Shown here one piece after another: positions 4,316-51,805 of a stretch of DNA of 64,000 bases; position 1 is the stretch's first letter; every line of letters begins with the position of its first letter. The notes beneath the pieces are model-generated. The model ran no database searches, was not told the origin of the DNA, and was given only the letters and a program-made list of their open reading frames with translations. This DNA comes from Candidatus Melainabacteria bacterium RIFCSPLOWO2_02_FULL_35_15 (lineage in GTDB: Bacteria; Cyanobacteriota; Vampirovibrionia; 2-02-FULL-35-15). A program made the position numbers and the translations under genes. The stretch covers positions 93,894-157,893 of the forward strand of contig MFRN01000013.1 of assembly GCA_001784585.1 (NCBI GenBank), read 5' to 3'.

Positions 4316-5898
4316 ATAATACCGACAAAATACTTTCTTCTCAGATCAAGGAGTTTAATTCCGGCGAAAAGTTCTTTGTATTTTTCAATATCTGACGAAT
4401 GCCCTATTACAAAAACATTGCTGTCATGTAAATTTTTAATTTTCTTAATTTGATATTTTTTATCACTAAAGTCAACCGGCAAGCCGCTGTAATAAACCAG
4501 AGAAGGGCGATACATACCAAAAGATATAATTTTAGCTGCATTGTTTTTTTTAGCAAGTCTGGCAAAATCTCTTAAGTCTGCATGTGTATGCTTATAATAA
4601 GGAACAAGGTAAGAATTAAGTCCAAAGATAAAGAAAACAATAAAACTTAAAGCAAAGCCAATAACCAATGAATAGGCTTTTTTCAGGCAAAAGACAGAAA
4701 CCAGTAATCCAAAAAACAGAAAAGCTGCACACAAAGATATTTTTAACAACACTATGGATTTAAGTGATTGTTCTGTGTTCCATTTCAACAATAAATTAAA
4801 AACACAAAAAAATACCGGAATTAAAAGCAGCAATAAAAATATAATTATATTTCTTATAGCACCAGGGCTTCTTTTAGATAAAACTGAAGCCCAGTACCCG
4901 GTAATAATTGAAAGCGGAGGAAATATTAACAAAATATATGTAGCAAGTTTTGTAGTGCTAAAGGAAAAAAACAAAAATACCGTTACTATCCAGACAAAAG
5001 AAAATAATAAAAGTTTATTAAACGATTTCTTTAAAACCCGTTTAAAGAGATGTATAACAGCATCAATAAAAAAAAGAGTCCATGGCATAAATCCACCCAG
5101 AACTACAGGTACATAAAACCAGAATGGTCCGGGATGCTCTCCTACCACAGAAGTAAATCTTTTTAAATTATGTTCAAAGAAAAACTCACGGGTAAATTCT
5201 CCATTTGTCACCAAGTGTACCTTCAGATACCAGGGAAGACTTATCAGCAAAGCAAAAAATAAAATTGTAAAGTAAACCCTTAAGTGCTTAATGTCAAGCT
5301 GTTTTTTAACGATTAGAAATCCGGTTAAAACAACTAACGGCAATAAAACGCCGACAGGACCTTTTGTTAATGCTGAAAACCCGCAAAAAACACCAGCCAG
5401 AATACACCAGAAAATTTTTATCTTAAAATCTTTTATATAGCAACTTAAAAAAGCAGAATACAAAGAGCCTGTAAAAAAGAAACATAAAGTCGTATCAGTA
5501 GCAGCTCTTCTCCCAAGCAAAACAAACTCAACAGATGTAATTAAAATTATTGCTGATAAAAATGAGACTCTCTTTCCGAAAACTTTTTTTGTGATATACC
5601 ATGTGAATAAAACACATAAAGTTGCACACAGTGCCGATGGTAATCTGCTTGTAAAATCACTTATTCCAAAGAGTTTATATGAAAGTGCAATTAACCAGTA
5701 AAATAAAACAGGCTTATCAAATCTGTTTTGAAAATTAAATTGTGGAATAATCCAGTTATTGCTTTTAAGCATCTCAAGAGCAGTACCGGCATAGCGCGGT
5801 TCATCTTTATCAAGCAAGCCATAATTACCAATTCCAAAGAAAAAAACAAAAAAGCATAAAAGCAACAAAAGCAAATTAAGTTTGCTCATCAGGCGCAA
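4312..5898 (-). CDS. GT39/GT83 (ArnT / PMT-like) membrane glycosyltransferase
   Basis: N-terminal DEPRYA motif (LLDKDEPRYAGTALEML) and about 12 TM helices. It is convergent with, and overlaps, the PAP2 gene. Confidence 0.75.
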   Translation of the reverse strand: MRLMSKLNLLLLLLCFFVFFFGIGNYGLLDKDEPRYAGTALEMLKSNNWIIPQFNFQNRFDKPVLFYWLIALSYKLFGISDFTSRLPSALCATLCVLFTWYITKKVFGKRVSFLSAIILITSVEFVLLGRRAATDTTLCFFFTGSLYSAFLSCYIKDFKIKIFWCILAGVFCGFSALTKGPVGVLLPLVVLTGFLIVKKQLDIKHLRVYFTILFFALLISLPWYLKVHLVTNGEFTREFFFEHNLKRFTSVVGEHPGPFWFYVPVVLGGFMPWTLFFIDAVIHLFKRVLKKSFNKLLLFSFVWIVTVFLFFSFSTTKLATYILLIFPPLSIITGYWASVLSKRSPGAIRNIIIFLLLLLIPVFFCVFNLLLKWNTEQSLKSIVLLKISLCAAFLFFGLLVSVFCLKKAYSLVIGFALSFIVFFIFGLNSYLVPYYKHTHADLRDFARLAKKNNAAKIISFGMYRPSLVYYSGLPVDFSDKKYQIKKIKNLHDSNVFVIGHSSDIEKYKELFAGIKLLDLRRKYFVGII

Positions 5899-19005: not shown

Positions 19006-19074
19006 TTATATTAAAGGAACGTAGTTACTGCCTAGCTATGTTACTAAGTCTAACCTGACTAACTTACAAAGAAA

Positions 19075-19102
19075 GGTTTTGCCTGGTTTATCCAGCAAAA
19101 CC
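19075..19102 (-). ncRNA. Hairpin H1, member of the conserved RUAAA-loop hairpin family
   Basis: The minus-strand reading is GGTTTTGC-TGG-ATAAA-CCA-G-GCAAAACC followed by TTTCTTTGT. It is collinear with H2 (49954..49981), with compensatory changes in the inner stem. Confidence 0.35.
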
Positions 19103-19288
19103 TGAAAAATGATACAAAAGGCAGACTGCGAGCACTTTGCAAAGCCCGACCTGCGAGGTACGAAGCAAGGAGGGCAGTAGACAAAAACGAAATGTAGAGA
19201 TATCCTGGCTTCAATTTAACCTTACTTTAACTAAACATGCTTATTATGCCTTTTATAAATCCAAAAAATGATTTAGGGAGGAAATACC

Positions 19289-45238: not shown

Positions 45239-46447
45239 TTAACGCCCGTAACATTTTCTCAAATAATTTTTATAATTGTCAGAAATATCATTAACATTAT
45301 CAGTTCCAAATTTTTCTAACAAAGCATCTGCCAAAACATATGCAAGCATTGACTCCAGTACTACACCTGCTGCCGGGACTACGCAGATATCAGATCTTTC
45401 AAAATGTGCCCGAGTATTTGATTTTGACTTTATGTCTACTGAGTCAAGTGGTTTTATAAGTGTAGGTATTGGTTTTGCAGCAACAGTACAAACAATTGGC
45501 TGACCGTTTGACATACCGCCTTCAATACCTCCTGAATTATTTGTTTTTCTTTTATAACGAAGCCTGTCACCTTTCCAGTTTTCATCTGTATAAATTTGAT
45601 CATGAACCTGGGAGCCGTAAAGCTCTGAAACCAGCTTGCCAAGACCGATCTCGATGGATTTGACAGTGTGTACAGAGGCCAGTGCTCCTGCAATTCTTCC
45701 ATTTAATCTTTTATCCCACTGTGAATATGAGCCAAGTCCTACAGGAACTCCTGTAGCTACTACCTGAATAAGCCCGCCCAAAGTATCTCCCTGAGTCCTT
45801 GCAGTATCAATAGCTTTTTTCATTTGTTCTGAAACATCCGGATCCGGACATCGGAGAGAAGATACTTCAGCTTTTGAAAATAAAGCTTCATAATCGTTTC
45901 CAAGAGTTTTAATATTTACATAAGCTGAACCAATTCTTAAAACGTAACTTAAAACCTTTATGTTAAATTGTTTAAGTAATTTTTTACAAATAGCACCGAC
46001 TACAACACGGCTTGTGGTCTCTCTGGCACTGGATCTTTCAAGCACATCTCTTACATCTTCATGTCCGTATTTTACAGCTCCGGGTAAATCAGCATGCCCG
46101 GGTCTTACGCAGGAAATATATTTTGATTCAATTTCTCTTTTTATTTCAGGATTGCTTAAATCCTGAGGTACCGGTGACATAGCAATATCCCAGTTTTTAA
46201 AGTCATTATTAAATAATTTTACTGAAACTGGTCCGCCAATGGTTTTACCCAGCCTGACTCCACCGGTAAATAAAGTTTGATCTTTTTCAATTTTCATCCT
46301 GCCGCCGCGGCCATAGTTGCCTTGCCTGCGGAATAAGTCAATATTTACATCTTCAGGCAGAAGCTCTAATCCTGCCGGAACACCGTCCAGGATTATGTTT
46401 AACTCAGGTCCATGTGATTCACCTGCTGTAAGAAATCTAATTGGCAT
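45239..46447 (-). CDS. aroC: Chorismate synthase
   Basis: AroC signature motifs (GESHG, RPGHAD, SARETT). Confidence 0.9.
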   Translation of the reverse strand: MPIRFLTAGESHGPELNIILDGVPAGLELLPEDVNIDLFRRQGNYGRGGRMKIEKDQTLFTGGVRLGKTIGGPVSVKLFNNDFKNWDIAMSPVPQDLSNPEIKREIESKYISCVRPGHADLPGAVKYGHEDVRDVLERSSARETTSRVVVGAICKKLLKQFNIKVLSYVLRIGSAYVNIKTLGNDYEALFSKAEVSSLRCPDPDVSEQMKKAIDTARTQGDTLGGLIQVVATGVPVGLGSYSQWDKRLNGRIAGALASVHTVKSIEIGLGKLVSELYGSQVHDQIYTDENWKGDRLRYKRKTNNSGGIEGGMSNGQPIVCTVAAKPIPTLIKPLDSVDIKSKSNTRAHFERSDICVVPAAGVVLESMLAYVLADALLEKFGTDNVNDISDNYKNYLRKCYGR

Positions 46448-46461
46448 GTGTGTTATACGTC

Positions 46462-46486
46462 AGAGACGCCCCGTCGGAGCGTCTCT
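46462..46486. other. GC-rich hairpin AGAGACGC-N9-GCGTCTCT between the 218-aa gene stop and the aroC start
   Basis: An 8-bp GC-rich inverted repeat. The T-run lies on the plus strand only. It may be an attenuator or RNA-stability element. Confidence 0.3.
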
Positions 46487-49660: not shown

Positions 49661-49953
49661 TATTTTTATCTCCTTAGTTTAAATACTATTTTTTAGTATT
49701 TATAACTTTTGGCTTTTTTTACAGTTCTTCAATACTTCCCTTAATTTTATATGATTCTTGAATTTAAGAACAAGCCAAAATGCTATATACATAAACTTTA
49801 CTAAATTTTAACTTTTCAAGTCAAGGCCAAATTCATTTTTAAAGATAAAACTATTCTTAAGTTTTTTTTCTTTTACCTGCCGCAACACAATTTTCTAATA
49901 AAATTGCGTTGCTTTGCAAAGATTTTTGGTATACCTTAATACAGCATTGGGCA

Positions 49954-49981
49954 GGTTTTGCCGAGTAAATCGGACAAAACC
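49954..49981 (+). ncRNA. Hairpin H2, family member
   Basis: GGTTTTGC-CGA-GTAAA-TCG-G-ACAAAACC followed by TTTCAGTT. It lies about 55 nt upstream of folK. The hairpin GCAAC(A)CAATTTT-ctaat-AAAATTGCGTTGC lies just upstream of it. Confidence 0.35.
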
Positions 49982-50033: not shown

Positions 50034-50588
50034 ATGTTAAAAAATAAAACAAACAATAATTTAAAGGCATCTAATTTGTCATCACTTAAAACAGTTTATC
50101 TTGGCATTGGGACCAATAAAGGCACCAGAGAAACAAATATTTCAAGTGCTATTAACCTGCTTAGCAATATAAAAGGAATAAAACTTTTAAAAATTTCAAA
50201 GATGCTAAAAAATCCTCCCCAGGAAGGAATTAAAAGTGGTTATTTTTTAAACGGGGCCATAAAGCTTCTGACATCATTGACTCCGCTTGAGCTTTTAAAA
50301 GTGTGCAAGAAGATAGAGAAGAAGCAAGGACGCAAGGAAACAAGAATACAAAGAAGGAAAATATCAAGAGTTATAGATCTCGATATTTTATTTTATGGAA
50401 ATGAGATTATTAATACGAAAGAACTAACCATCCCGCATCCAATGATTGAAAAGAGATATTTTGTTTTAATTCCGCTTATGGAAATTGCAAAAAGATTTGT
50501 ACATCCTCTTTTGAAGAAAAGTATAAAGGAATTGTATATCGACTACTGTGCCCCTACCAGCATTAAAAACTGTGCAAGTGCTGTATGA
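50034..50588 (+). CDS. folK: 2-amino-4-hydroxy-6-hydroxymethyldihydropteridine pyrophosphokinase
   Basis: HPPK pattern (VYLGIGTNKG ... IDLDILFYG ... IPHP). The start is uncertain; an N-terminal extension is possible. Confidence 0.7.
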   Translation: MLKNKTNNNLKASNLSSLKTVYLGIGTNKGTRETNISSAINLLSNIKGIKLLKISKMLKNPPQEGIKSGYFLNGAIKLLTSLTPLELLKVCKKIEKKQGRKETRIQRRKISRVIDLDILFYGNEIINTKELTIPHPMIEKRYFVLIPLMEIAKRFVHPLLKKSIKELYIDYCAPTSIKNCASAV

Positions 50589-51616
50589 AGGCTTGAATAT
50601 TGACTTGGGTGCAGCTTTGGCTGTCTGTATTTTTTATGGATTTCAAGCCTTAGGGTTGGAATTGAAAAATCTTCAAAAAGTAAATGATTTATTGTCTTCA
50701 TTTCTTTTGAAATAACATCTTTTGAATCGTAGCCGATTTTTTTAAAATCTTTTACCTTAAGCATGCTGGTCAGCAGGTGTAAATATTCTGTTCTGTTTAT
50801 CAGTGAACTGTTATTCCAGCTATTTAAAATTAATTCATGCGGGCTGTTCCAGTTTTCTATGCCATGCAGGATTAAAACAAGTTTTAAATTTGTTTTTTTA
50901 ATCAGCTGACTTAAAAAACTTACATAAGGAGAGGTTAAATAATAAACAGGATCACTGGCTGCACAGTAAGAACTTACCAGGGAGTGGCATCCTGTTAATT
51001 TATGCAGTAATACTGCCAGTGAGCCGGTGTAAGATTCAGAAGAGTGCCAGTTTCCATCAGTAAAAAATGCAGTTGAATGCGGGGCCAATACTAAAGCCGG
51101 AATTTCACCACCGTAATATTCATAATCAAATTCACCTTCAGGTGGATACTGTTCAGATCTTCTTTTTAACTGTGCCTCAAACTGAGTGGACCAGGCAATT
51201 GTGTCAAAATTTGTAGGATGATTTACCAGATAAGAAAGAGCTTCTTTTAATTTATTAAAACGTGCTTCAGAGTGAAATAAAACCCATGGGCTAAATGGCT
51301 CATTTCCTACTACTACGACCTGTTTTCCCTGCCCGTGAGCATAAAACATTTCCATGGTTGCAGATTCAGTGACCTGTGTAAGATTTGCCAGCAGAGAATC
51401 TGCCCTGTCTATTAGTGACAGTGAGTGTTTTACTGCACTTGTAGATTCACCTACGCTTTTTACAAAACCAGTTAAATCCAAATCCAGTGGATTGGCTACA
51501 GTAATGCCTGATCGTATAAAGGTGCTTGCAGCATAAGCTTTCCAGTCAGTAGAAACTCCAAGCGAAGGATCACTGAGTGCAATTGGCGGCCCTGATAAAT
51601 ATATTGATGTTGGCAT
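50543..51616 (-). CDS. Fusion protein: N-terminal nucleoside 2-deoxyribosyltransferase-like domain plus a C-terminal amidohydrolase-like domain
   Basis: The N-terminus has SIYLSGP and FYAHGQGKQVVVVG, as in the NDT/YtoQ fold. The C-terminus has PALVLAPHSTAF and LILHGIEN, which look like N-formylglutamate amidohydrolase-like motifs. The second call is weak. Confidence 0.45.
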   Translation of the reverse strand: MPTSIYLSGPPIALSDPSLGVSTDWKAYAASTFIRSGITVANPLDLDLTGFVKSVGESTSAVKHSLSLIDRADSLLANLTQVTESATMEMFYAHGQGKQVVVVGNEPFSPWVLFHSEARFNKLKEALSYLVNHPTNFDTIAWSTQFEAQLKRRSEQYPPEGEFDYEYYGGEIPALVLAPHSTAFFTDGNWHSSESYTGSLAVLLHKLTGCHSLVSSYCAASDPVYYLTSPYVSFLSQLIKKTNLKLVLILHGIENWNSPHELILNSWNNSSLINRTEYLHLLTSMLKVKDFKKIGYDSKDVISKEMKTINHLLFEDFSIPTLRLEIHKKYRQPKLHPSQYSSLHTALAQFLMLVGAQ

Positions 51617-51624
51617 AAAGGATA

Positions 51625-51805
51625 GCCCTATTCCCTCCTCTGTTATTACTCAGGTGGCTCTTGCGGTGACGTTGCTCCTCAGAGCCACCTTTGCATAGAC
51701 CGCTCGGTTTACTGAATGAATCAGGCAAACCTCGCTTCCTTAGATGGCCCAGATTTAGGACATGATCATGATGCACTTGGAGTACCTGAGCAGTTATCCT
51801 CCTCT
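51625..51805 (+). ncRNA. Structured GC-rich element R2 (candidate ncRNA or leader), about 180 nt
   Basis: GC content is about 50% in a roughly 33% background. It has a 10-bp hairpin AGGTGGCTCT...AGAGCCACCT and the segments GCTCTTGCGGTGACGTTG and GGAGTACCTGAGCAGTTATCCTCC, which are collinear with R1. CTCAGGT can pair long-range with ACCTGAG. Confidence 0.35.

Follow-up and report, generated by a model that had tools for sequence, protein, structure and literature searches.

The 64-kb stretch of Melainabacteria DNA analysed here (the window, by which we mean the whole of that stretch) raises the question of why long hairpins of one design recur between its genes, and on which strand and at what level they might act. 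Melainabacteria are uncultured, non-photosynthetic sisters of the cyanobacteria, and to our knowledge nothing is known of how their genes are punctuated or expressed. An initial annotation of the window had grouped three such hairpins (H1, H2 and H3) into one family with covarying stems, had read them on the strand that carries an RUAAA loop, and had offered three explanations: terminators of unannotated sRNAs, REP-like elements, or protein-binding RNA or DNA hairpins. We found that each of these hairpins is the constant hairpin, P2, of a larger module with a second hairpin, P1, and that the element has the behaviour of mobile DNA as well as that of a conserved leader in front of start codons.

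All three hairpins read as described (Table 1), and they have a common geometry of a 7-8 bp outer stem, a 4 bp inner stem, a 5-nt loop and one bulged base. Each folds as a hairpin on either strand; the energies range from -13 to -19 kcal/mol and the z-scores from -3.8 to -4.7. On the RUAAA strand a single unpaired base follows the inner stem on its 3' side, and it is A in H2 and H3 and G in H1. For H2 the earlier parse, with CGA/TCG as inner stem and a bulged G, forces a C.A mismatch, and a 4-bp inner stem with a bulged A fits (GGTTTTG-CCGA-GTAAA-TCGG-A-CAAAACC). On the plus strand, its gene-sense strand, H1 reads GGTTTTG-C-CTGG-TTTAT-CCAG-CAAAACC; it can also be drawn with a 4-bp inner stem as AGGTTTTG-CTGG-ATAAA-CCAG-G-CAAAACCT, and its pairing grows by one A-T pair to 19074-19103.

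A scan for perfect hairpins of exactly this geometry (7 + 4 bp, 5-nt loop, 1-nt 3' bulge) found four in the window, H1 to H3 and a further copy, H4 (CATTTGT-CTGC-CTTAG-GCAG-A-ACAAATG), whereas 60 dinucleotide shuffles of the window averaged 0.03 and never exceeded 1. H1-H3 are one family, as first proposed. The 14-mer common to H2 and H3, which had been put down as possible chance in 64 kb, has two matches where 0.12 are expected. The inner stem-loop variant of H4, CTGC-CTTAG-GCAG, also occurs at five loci found in the searches described below, which carry L numbers (L100, L103, L107, L114 and L188). A relaxed scan added H5, an imperfect copy that reads GGTTTG-C-CTGA-TTCAT-TCAG-TAAACC on the minus strand with one G-U pair and whose module has homologues in L106 and L120, bringing the window to five copies in 64 kb. 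All of the copies scored were intergenic. Their neighbours include an MMSDH-type aldehyde dehydrogenase gene, and a gene check confirmed the AdoMet decarboxylase (speH) and folK named earlier; 7 nt separate the stop codon of the AdoMet decarboxylase gene from H3.

Table 1. Hairpins, module parts and an associated start region in the window.
Feature	Positions	Strand	Remarks
H1, constant hairpin P2 of module 1	19075..19102	+	R1 covariance model, 37 bits on +
Module 1 linker	19103..19143	+	contains perfect palindrome CTTTGCAAAG at 19135-19144
Module 1 P1' (GCCC...GGGC)	19144..19175	+	fold; homologous to L092, L161, L149, L213
Module 4 remainder: linker, P1', ATTAAAAA	24835..24893	-	P1' at 24843-24863
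H4, further P2 copy (module 4)	24894..24921	-	R1, 64 bits; exact-geometry scan
Old SD AAGGAGG with GTG 8 nt later, upstream of module 4	24936..24953	-	
Module 3 remainder: purine-rich linker, P1', TATAAAAAAA	28650..28710	-	P1' at 28663-28683
H3, constant hairpin P2 of the class-C module 3	28711..28738	-	R1, 99 bits for whole module
Module 2 P1' and palindrome GCTTTGCAAAG	49882..49921	-	hairpin 49882-49912, palindrome 49911-49921
H2, constant hairpin P2 of module 2	49954..49981	- (gene-sense)	R1, 41 bits on -
Module 5 P1' AGGTGGCTCT...AGAGCCACCT	51652..51690	-	35 nt before ATG (51616) of gene 50543..51616
H5, further imperfect P2 copy (module 5)	51704..51729	-	relaxed scan; R1, 16.6 bits

The full module is about 100-160 nt long. 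Read on the gene strand, it runs from a short conserved tail through P2', a purine-rich linker, P1' and an A-rich run, usually to a start codon. On this strand P2' has 7-8 + 4 bp, the loop is UUUAY and the one bulged base is a 5' U. P1 and P2 lie 13-45 nt apart in every copy, and the P1 hairpins fall into at least four or five unrelated classes. The palindrome CTTTGCAAAG is common to H1 and H2 and stands exactly 30 nt from P2 in both, with further similarity in the flanks. Module 2 has a P1' of 13 bp, with a G-U pair, on the minus strand, and this is a class-B P1 as in L015, L054, L062 and L087; orthology of H2 with L015 was considered and rejected, as the resemblance between the two modules does not extend to the genes beside them. 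The P1' hairpins of modules 3 and 4 are AGGTTCAG-CTTGT-CTGAACCT and GCCATCAA-TTTGT-TTGGTGGC on the minus strand, which on the RUAAA strand become AGGTTCAG-ACAAG-CTGAACCT and GCCACCAA-ACAAA-TTGATGGC. In module 4, ATTAAAAA immediately precedes the ATG (24834) of an ABC ATPase gene. Module 1 has an A-rich stretch after its P1' and then the start-stop ATG-TAG at 19191-19196. This start-stop is 16 nt past P1', where other modules have the start codon of a gene; the real gene beyond it starts 95 nt past ATG-TAG, at 19289, and has a strong SD of its own.

Class C has the P1 core CAG-ACAAG-CTG, with P2 always following at a fixed distance, and its gene-sense consensus is ...CTNGCAAWTWAA-[GGATTTG-T-CCGA-TTTAT-TCGG-CAAATCC]-GATCAAACGAAAGGAATTGACCGAAGGAA-[GCTTCAG-CTTGT-CTGAAGC]-TATAAAAAAA-ATG. 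Several variants of the module were also seen. In L187 (about 8330) and L208 (about 2810) P1 is flipped relative to P2, so that the loop CTTGT is on the RUAAA strand. P2 in L120 (650-700), L156, L161 and L166 keeps its outer stem around a loop insertion of 10-13 nt that is T/A-rich (...CCAATTTTTTTTATATTAATGGGG...). A further class combines a P1/linker ACCGCTCGTTTCGCGCGAACGCTCAACTCGCT...CGACG with the P2 outer stem CTTTTTG/CAAAAAG (L025 7314, L038 3541, L047 263, L065 7878, L094 2779 and L166 5095), and two of its copies abut tRNA genes. An outer helix around P2', present in folds of H3 and H4, was rejected, as visual inspection of the family alignment showed no conservation of it.

The proteins encoded in the window found matches only on metagenome contigs. 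For the element itself, we scanned one genome per GTDB species with the seed GGTTTTG-N4-RTAAA-N5-CAAAACC, which gave 92 loci. The inner stem was complementary in 31 of these, 30 of them from MAGs labelled Candidatus Melainabacteria or Candidatus Caenarcanales; copies of the strict pattern number about 30 across six or seven such MAGs. The inner stem has at least nine complementary forms across these MAGs, while the loop stays RTAAA and the bulge A. At the remaining loci the inner stem is not complementary, and the matches look like chance. Seed matches in Desulfobacterales (L007, L043, L049, L067, L085, L089 and L095) and in Sutterella (L014, L018, L070 and L093) have flanks that are conserved within each group and coding-like; they are unrelated to the family because inner-stem complementarity is lacking. 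Another seed match, GGTTTTGTTCGATAAATCGTACAAAACC in a Paenibacillaceae MAG (L096, about 5440-5560), recurs about every 50 nt and looks like part of a tandem or CRISPR-like array in an unrelated taxon.

When a descriptor was run over 289 kb of the loci from these MAGs together with the window, it returned 53 hairpins of this geometry, 44 with the loop RTRAA and 47 with a bulged A, whereas 463 kb of other taxa gave 17 scattered matches with no recurrent loop. At least 11 extra copies in those loci fall outside the seed pattern and have compensatory outer stems (for example GGATTTG/CAAATCC, GCTTTTTG/CAAAAAGC and GACTTTTG/CAAAAGTC). P2 was then sampled without bias by a scan of JGI metagenomes anchored on the class-C P1 alone. 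This gave at least 120 loci, and among the matches listed 59 of 110 unique ones have a P2 of canonical geometry 27-30 nt (mostly 28-29) downstream of P1, with further P1 loci carrying variant P2 forms. The family is clearly not confined to the three hairpins first seen. Extrapolating from five modules per 64 kb, there may be a few hundred copies per genome.

Searches against Rfam 15 gave no gathering-level match in the whole window, and permissive scans around H1-H4 gave only chance-level matches with E-values above 0.5. No published description was found in the literature on the taxon or the P1 sequence. The element is absent from Rfam and the searchable literature; it is undescribed and lineage-specific, belonging to Caenarcanales-like groundwater Melainabacteria. 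A phage origin was rejected, as viral contigs gave a single chance match to P1, inside a coding region, and none to P2.

We next considered whether it is the pairing of the stems that is selected. An alignment of 60 sequences was built from 58 metagenome modules (among the matches listed) with H3 and H4, and RNAalifold recovered both hairpins from it. Standard pairs occupied 98.7% of cells, compared with 87% in column shuffles, and sliding of the 3' partners left only 18-52% of cells paired. Changes on both sides of a pair were found in 128 cells against 28 in shuffles (0 of 500 shuffles reached 128), and 9 of the 11 P2 pairs showed compensatory changes. The earlier suggestion that the stems covary under selection for structure is thus well founded. 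Conservation at orthologous loci was also found: a module upstream of rplA is retained in four lineages that share only 70-78% identity in L1, with P2 stems of GGATTTG-CTGG/CCAG-CAAATCC, GGATTCA-CCAA/TTGG-TGAATCC, GGATTTG-CTGA/TCAG-CAAATCC and GGATTTA-..., so that both P2 stems show compensatory changes between lineages. Because this module covaries across such distances, the covariation is not just a product of copying within genomes. Two other syntenic sets showed similar compensatory differences. Pairing in the family is under selection, and the element has stayed in place at orthologous loci across long evolutionary distances.

In the TTTG/CAAA core and the P1 core CAGACAAGCTG the sequence itself is conserved as well as the pairing, and the elements stand upstream of genes, as would suit operators in duplex DNA, with a dimeric regulator or nucleoid protein bound to TTTTG-N14-CAAAA and/or the P1 palindrome CAG-N5-CTG. 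We regard such operators as highly improbable. Variation is free in the inner 4 bp and the outermost pairs yet never breaks their complementarity, and the single asymmetric bulge is kept in 52 of 59 copies among the matches listed, which is expected of an extruded hairpin and not of a duplex operator. Replacement of TTG/CAA by TCA/TGA or CTG/CAG in P2 keeps the pairing, and the downstream genes form no coherent regulon.

Orientation was assessed from the genes around the modules. Among the matches listed, a long ORF on the strand opposite RUAAA starts 7-34 nt from the P1 end in 38 of 59 class-C modules, mostly at 8-17 nt, and with ATG in 36 of the 38; no such fixed distance links ORF starts to the P2 side. 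Among tRNA genes, five have their first base 9-13 nt from the P1 end and read in the same sense, and five others end 8-16 nt from it on the other strand. All five modules in the window turn their P1 end towards a gene reading away from it, at distances to the start of 8 nt (H4), 35 nt (H5), 112 nt (H1), 150 nt (H3) and 215 nt (H2). Downstream genes are unrelated to one another (L14, L1, L10, SSB, DnaJ, Pth, aspartate kinase, FabF, UDP-glucose dehydrogenase and NarH). Module 4 has mlaE on one side and the ABC ATPase gene on the other; judging by typical gene order, several modules are likely to be operon-internal, and a module so placed would be transcribed in the sense of the downstream gene. 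Other contexts occur, such as between convergent genes (L092). Non-canonical pairs, counted on the gene-sense strand, comprised 15 G-U and 5 A-C (p about 0.04), an excess that gives weak support to that strand as the RNA strand; there were 8 transversion mismatches, and the mismatch spectrum also fits decay of DNA palindromes. With start codons, tRNA 5' ends and this weak G-U excess all favouring the other strand, the RUAAA strand is probably not the one on which the element should be read.

Intrinsic termination on the RUAAA strand, of unannotated sRNAs or of upstream genes, is a very doubtful explanation. H1-type and class A/B copies are followed there by TTTCTTTG, and five modules lie after tRNA 3' ends on that strand, as terminators would; the U-rich 3' flank reported for all three hairpins is real for H1, but H2 and H3 have no U tract, and class C continues into TATAATTG, again with no U tract. 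On the RUAAA strand neither a co-directional gene nor an obvious sRNA lies upstream of any of the five window copies, and the 38 of 59 modules (among the matches listed) that abut a divergent gene start offer no space for an sRNA promoter. The ordinary terminators of the window differ, for example that at 86-125, and an invariant loop and bulge are not usual in terminators. The stems are A/T-rich; read on the other strand, P2' continues into GAUC and purines.

Promoters and upstream reading frames were also sought in the module. No sigma-70-type promoter could be placed on the gene-sense strand, with no usable -10/-35 pair and no TAnnnT 16-18 nt past the conserved TTGYNA tail, and a generic promoter scan stayed at background level. 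TATAAA after P1' was rejected as a -10 element, being too near to the ATGs and tRNA 5' ends. An upstream ORF for a conserved peptide was rejected too, as by eye the upstream ATG frames differ in phase and length between copies.

Between relatives, copies of the element have been gained and lost. In MAG JACOTS01 the class-A copies show almost no differences over about 160 bp, stand at seven contig ends and have the inverted ends (T)TACTATTCAGGT / ACCTGAATAGTTAC, and the copy in L010 is flanked by a 10-bp direct duplication, AAATGCTATT; with near-identical copies, inverted ends and a target duplication, this subfamily is a bona fide MITE. Presence also differs between orthologous spacers. H4 is absent from the orthologous mlaE-ATPase spacer of L119, which is 17 nt long and has GGAG and ATG, and the window spacer has an insertion of about 105 nt after an old AAGGAGG-N8-GTG, with the ATG now after ATTAAAAA. 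Conversely, the L120 spacer has three modules and the orthologous window spacer (36784-36872) none. Modules also occur tail to tail (L110 3346-3510, L126, L155 and L186 9714-9832), with P2 hairpins in opposite orientation about 20 nt apart, reminiscent of REPIN or BIME doublets. An ATG, often within AAAATGA and in some copies preceded by an SD, is most frequent 24-35 nt upstream of P2' (L097-L216), with 34 occurrences in two 6-nt bins compared with about 5 per bin elsewhere; it may be what an insertion left of an earlier start codon.

Each of these features would be expected if the element were purely selfish mobile DNA of the REP/REPIN, PATE or MITE type. Its hairpins would then be conserved as folded single-stranded DNA for a transposase (a RAYT, an IS200-like Y1 enzyme, or the parent IS of the MITE subfamily), and its nearness to start codons would come from a preference for A/T-rich targets and the survival of insertions that rebuild a start region; the ATG peak and the old SD and start above H4 look like insertion beside a former start. 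The abutment of P1 on tRNA genes at both their 5' and 3' ends, and mismatches close to neutral decay (A-C 9, G-U 4 and other 8 on one strand), point the same way. We nevertheless think it unlikely to be the whole explanation. Class C has no inverted ends and no target-site duplication above control, whether by longest common substring or by an ungapped duplication test, and H1 has by eye only a possible 8-of-9 inverted end. Syntenic orthologues aside, no neighbouring gene or transposase recurs in about 0.7 Mb of module-bearing loci, and no IS200-like ORF was found in about 1.5 Mb, a result that is a lead only. The rplA module, kept with compensatory changes while L1 diverged to 70-78% identity, argues for selection at the level of the host and not for recent spread, and SD-like content 5' of P1' tracks the presence of a following ATG (see below). 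Set beside PATEs, the module has hairpins near both ends that are unlike each other, class C lacks a duplication, no TnpA was found in these loci, and ATG is enriched at the P2-side flank. The flanking sequences are GATC or YCA, with no GTAG motif. In Melainabacteria nzgw190 (L008 7500-7900), a tRNA-Ala gene is followed by a module and, 249 nt later, by a repeat of the 3' half of that tRNA with a second module, an arrangement that resembles the att-site duplication of an integrated element.

Evidence of a different kind came from the start regions. By eye, many genes of the window have an SD-like sequence upstream, and in 76% of the genes linked to modules the stretch from P1' to the ATG lacks an SD. 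The 13 nt just before P1' reach an anti-SD pairing energy of -4 kcal/mol or better in 63% of ATG-linked modules, compared with 33% of unlinked modules and 9% of random 13-mers. At the H4 site, where the old SD and GTG are left upstream of the insertion, the module must supply a working start region.

Our preferred reading, to which we give somewhat better than even credence, is that this is a dispersed non-coding element of REP/MITE type that is read on the strand opposite RUAAA as a leader, either 5' or intercistronic. Transcription of the downstream gene would take in the module, which would act at the RNA level as a portable leader, in which P2' and P1' would form stable hairpins bracketing an exposed, Shine-Dalgarno-like purine tract. 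Folding of P1' could bring a GGAAG tract to about 10 nt from the AUG of an SD-less, A-rich start site, and P2' may be an insulating, stabilising or protein-binding stem-loop. The loop, bulge and TTTG/CAAA core do not vary, which suggests that a dedicated partner binds them. At the sequence level, the marks of a cis-regulatory 5' leader (covariation, position with orientation, and conservation at orthologous sites) were found together. Some copies count against the leader reading: H1, H2 and H3, at 112, 215 and 150 nt from a start and not 8-17 nt, and the tRNA-linked copies, which cannot use a translation function. So do the modules found between convergent genes, after tRNA 3' ends and in tail-to-tail pairs, and the failure to place a sigma-70-type promoter in the module.

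More tentatively, and as a proposal that we would not ourselves expect to hold in full, the element may be a bacterial repeat of a new kind, a portable structured leader before start codons that spread in the manner of mobile DNA and has been kept ahead of hundreds of housekeeping genes and tRNAs. It would offer a hairpin-bridged SD with an A-rich start, and a bulged, UUUAY-looped handle for a lineage-specific protein that binds RNA or single-stranded DNA, serving genome-wide post-transcriptional control or RNA processing.

Comparison with known repeats places the element near several of them. REP-like was the nearest of the three options first offered, made before the larger two-hairpin module had been seen. 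Like REP/BIME (PU) sequences of enterobacteria and REPINs of Pseudomonas, it has a short imperfect palindrome with a conserved bulge, is extragenic and has many copies: P2 is 28 nt with one bulge, and there are 5 copies in the window, about 30 strict copies in MAGs and at least 120 metagenome loci. It is likewise often intercistronic, occurs singly or in inverted pairs and mosaics, and would lie in transcribed DNA and could form RNA stem-loops. It differs in having two different hairpins with a conserved linker and several unrelated P1 classes, in stems that vary in a compensatory manner within and between genomes, and in an end locked 8-17 nt upstream of start codons where REP-type elements follow stop codons; no GTAG-type motif or RAYT was seen in the loci searched.

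The Correia or NEMIS elements of Neisseria are MITEs with regulatory side effects that are co-transcribed with their neighbours. The modules resemble them as non-coding intergenic repeats of 100-160 bp near gene starts, with hairpins, differences in presence and absence, presumed co-transcription with neighbours and, in one subfamily, inverted ends and a target duplication. However, most modules (class C) have neither inverted ends nor duplication, no promoter can be placed in the module, and it forms two local stem-loops instead of one long hairpin from the element ends. BOX elements of Streptococcus pneumoniae combine constant and variable modules and can affect the expression of neighbours, with no fixed spacing to start codons; the element has the same modular build of constant and variable parts, intergenic position and stable secondary structure, but differs in sequence, host, module logic and its fixed start-codon spacing. 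In gene 38 of phage T4, a split ribosome-binding site is bridged by a hairpin, and such sites are single-gene cases. Similarly, an SD-like tract 5' of a stable hairpin would here be brought to a working distance from an AUG that lacks a local SD; unlike T4 gene 38, the arrangement would be a repeated cassette before many unrelated genes.

Its coupling to start codons, its presence in ribosomal-protein-gene spacers (probably operon-internal) and its turnover between relatives make this a testable element, and possibly an example of a mobile repeat that brings a translation-initiation leader with it or is tolerated in that role. A covariance model is ready for annotating these MAGs and explaining their assembly breaks, and the bulged hairpin could be used as bait for a protein that reads P2. 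The window also contains an unrelated G+C-rich hairpin, GAGACGCTCCGACGGGGCGTCTC, at 46455-46480, 14 nt before the ATG of the gene at 45239..46447 (minus strand); this is a different hairpin that takes the same place relative to a start codon.
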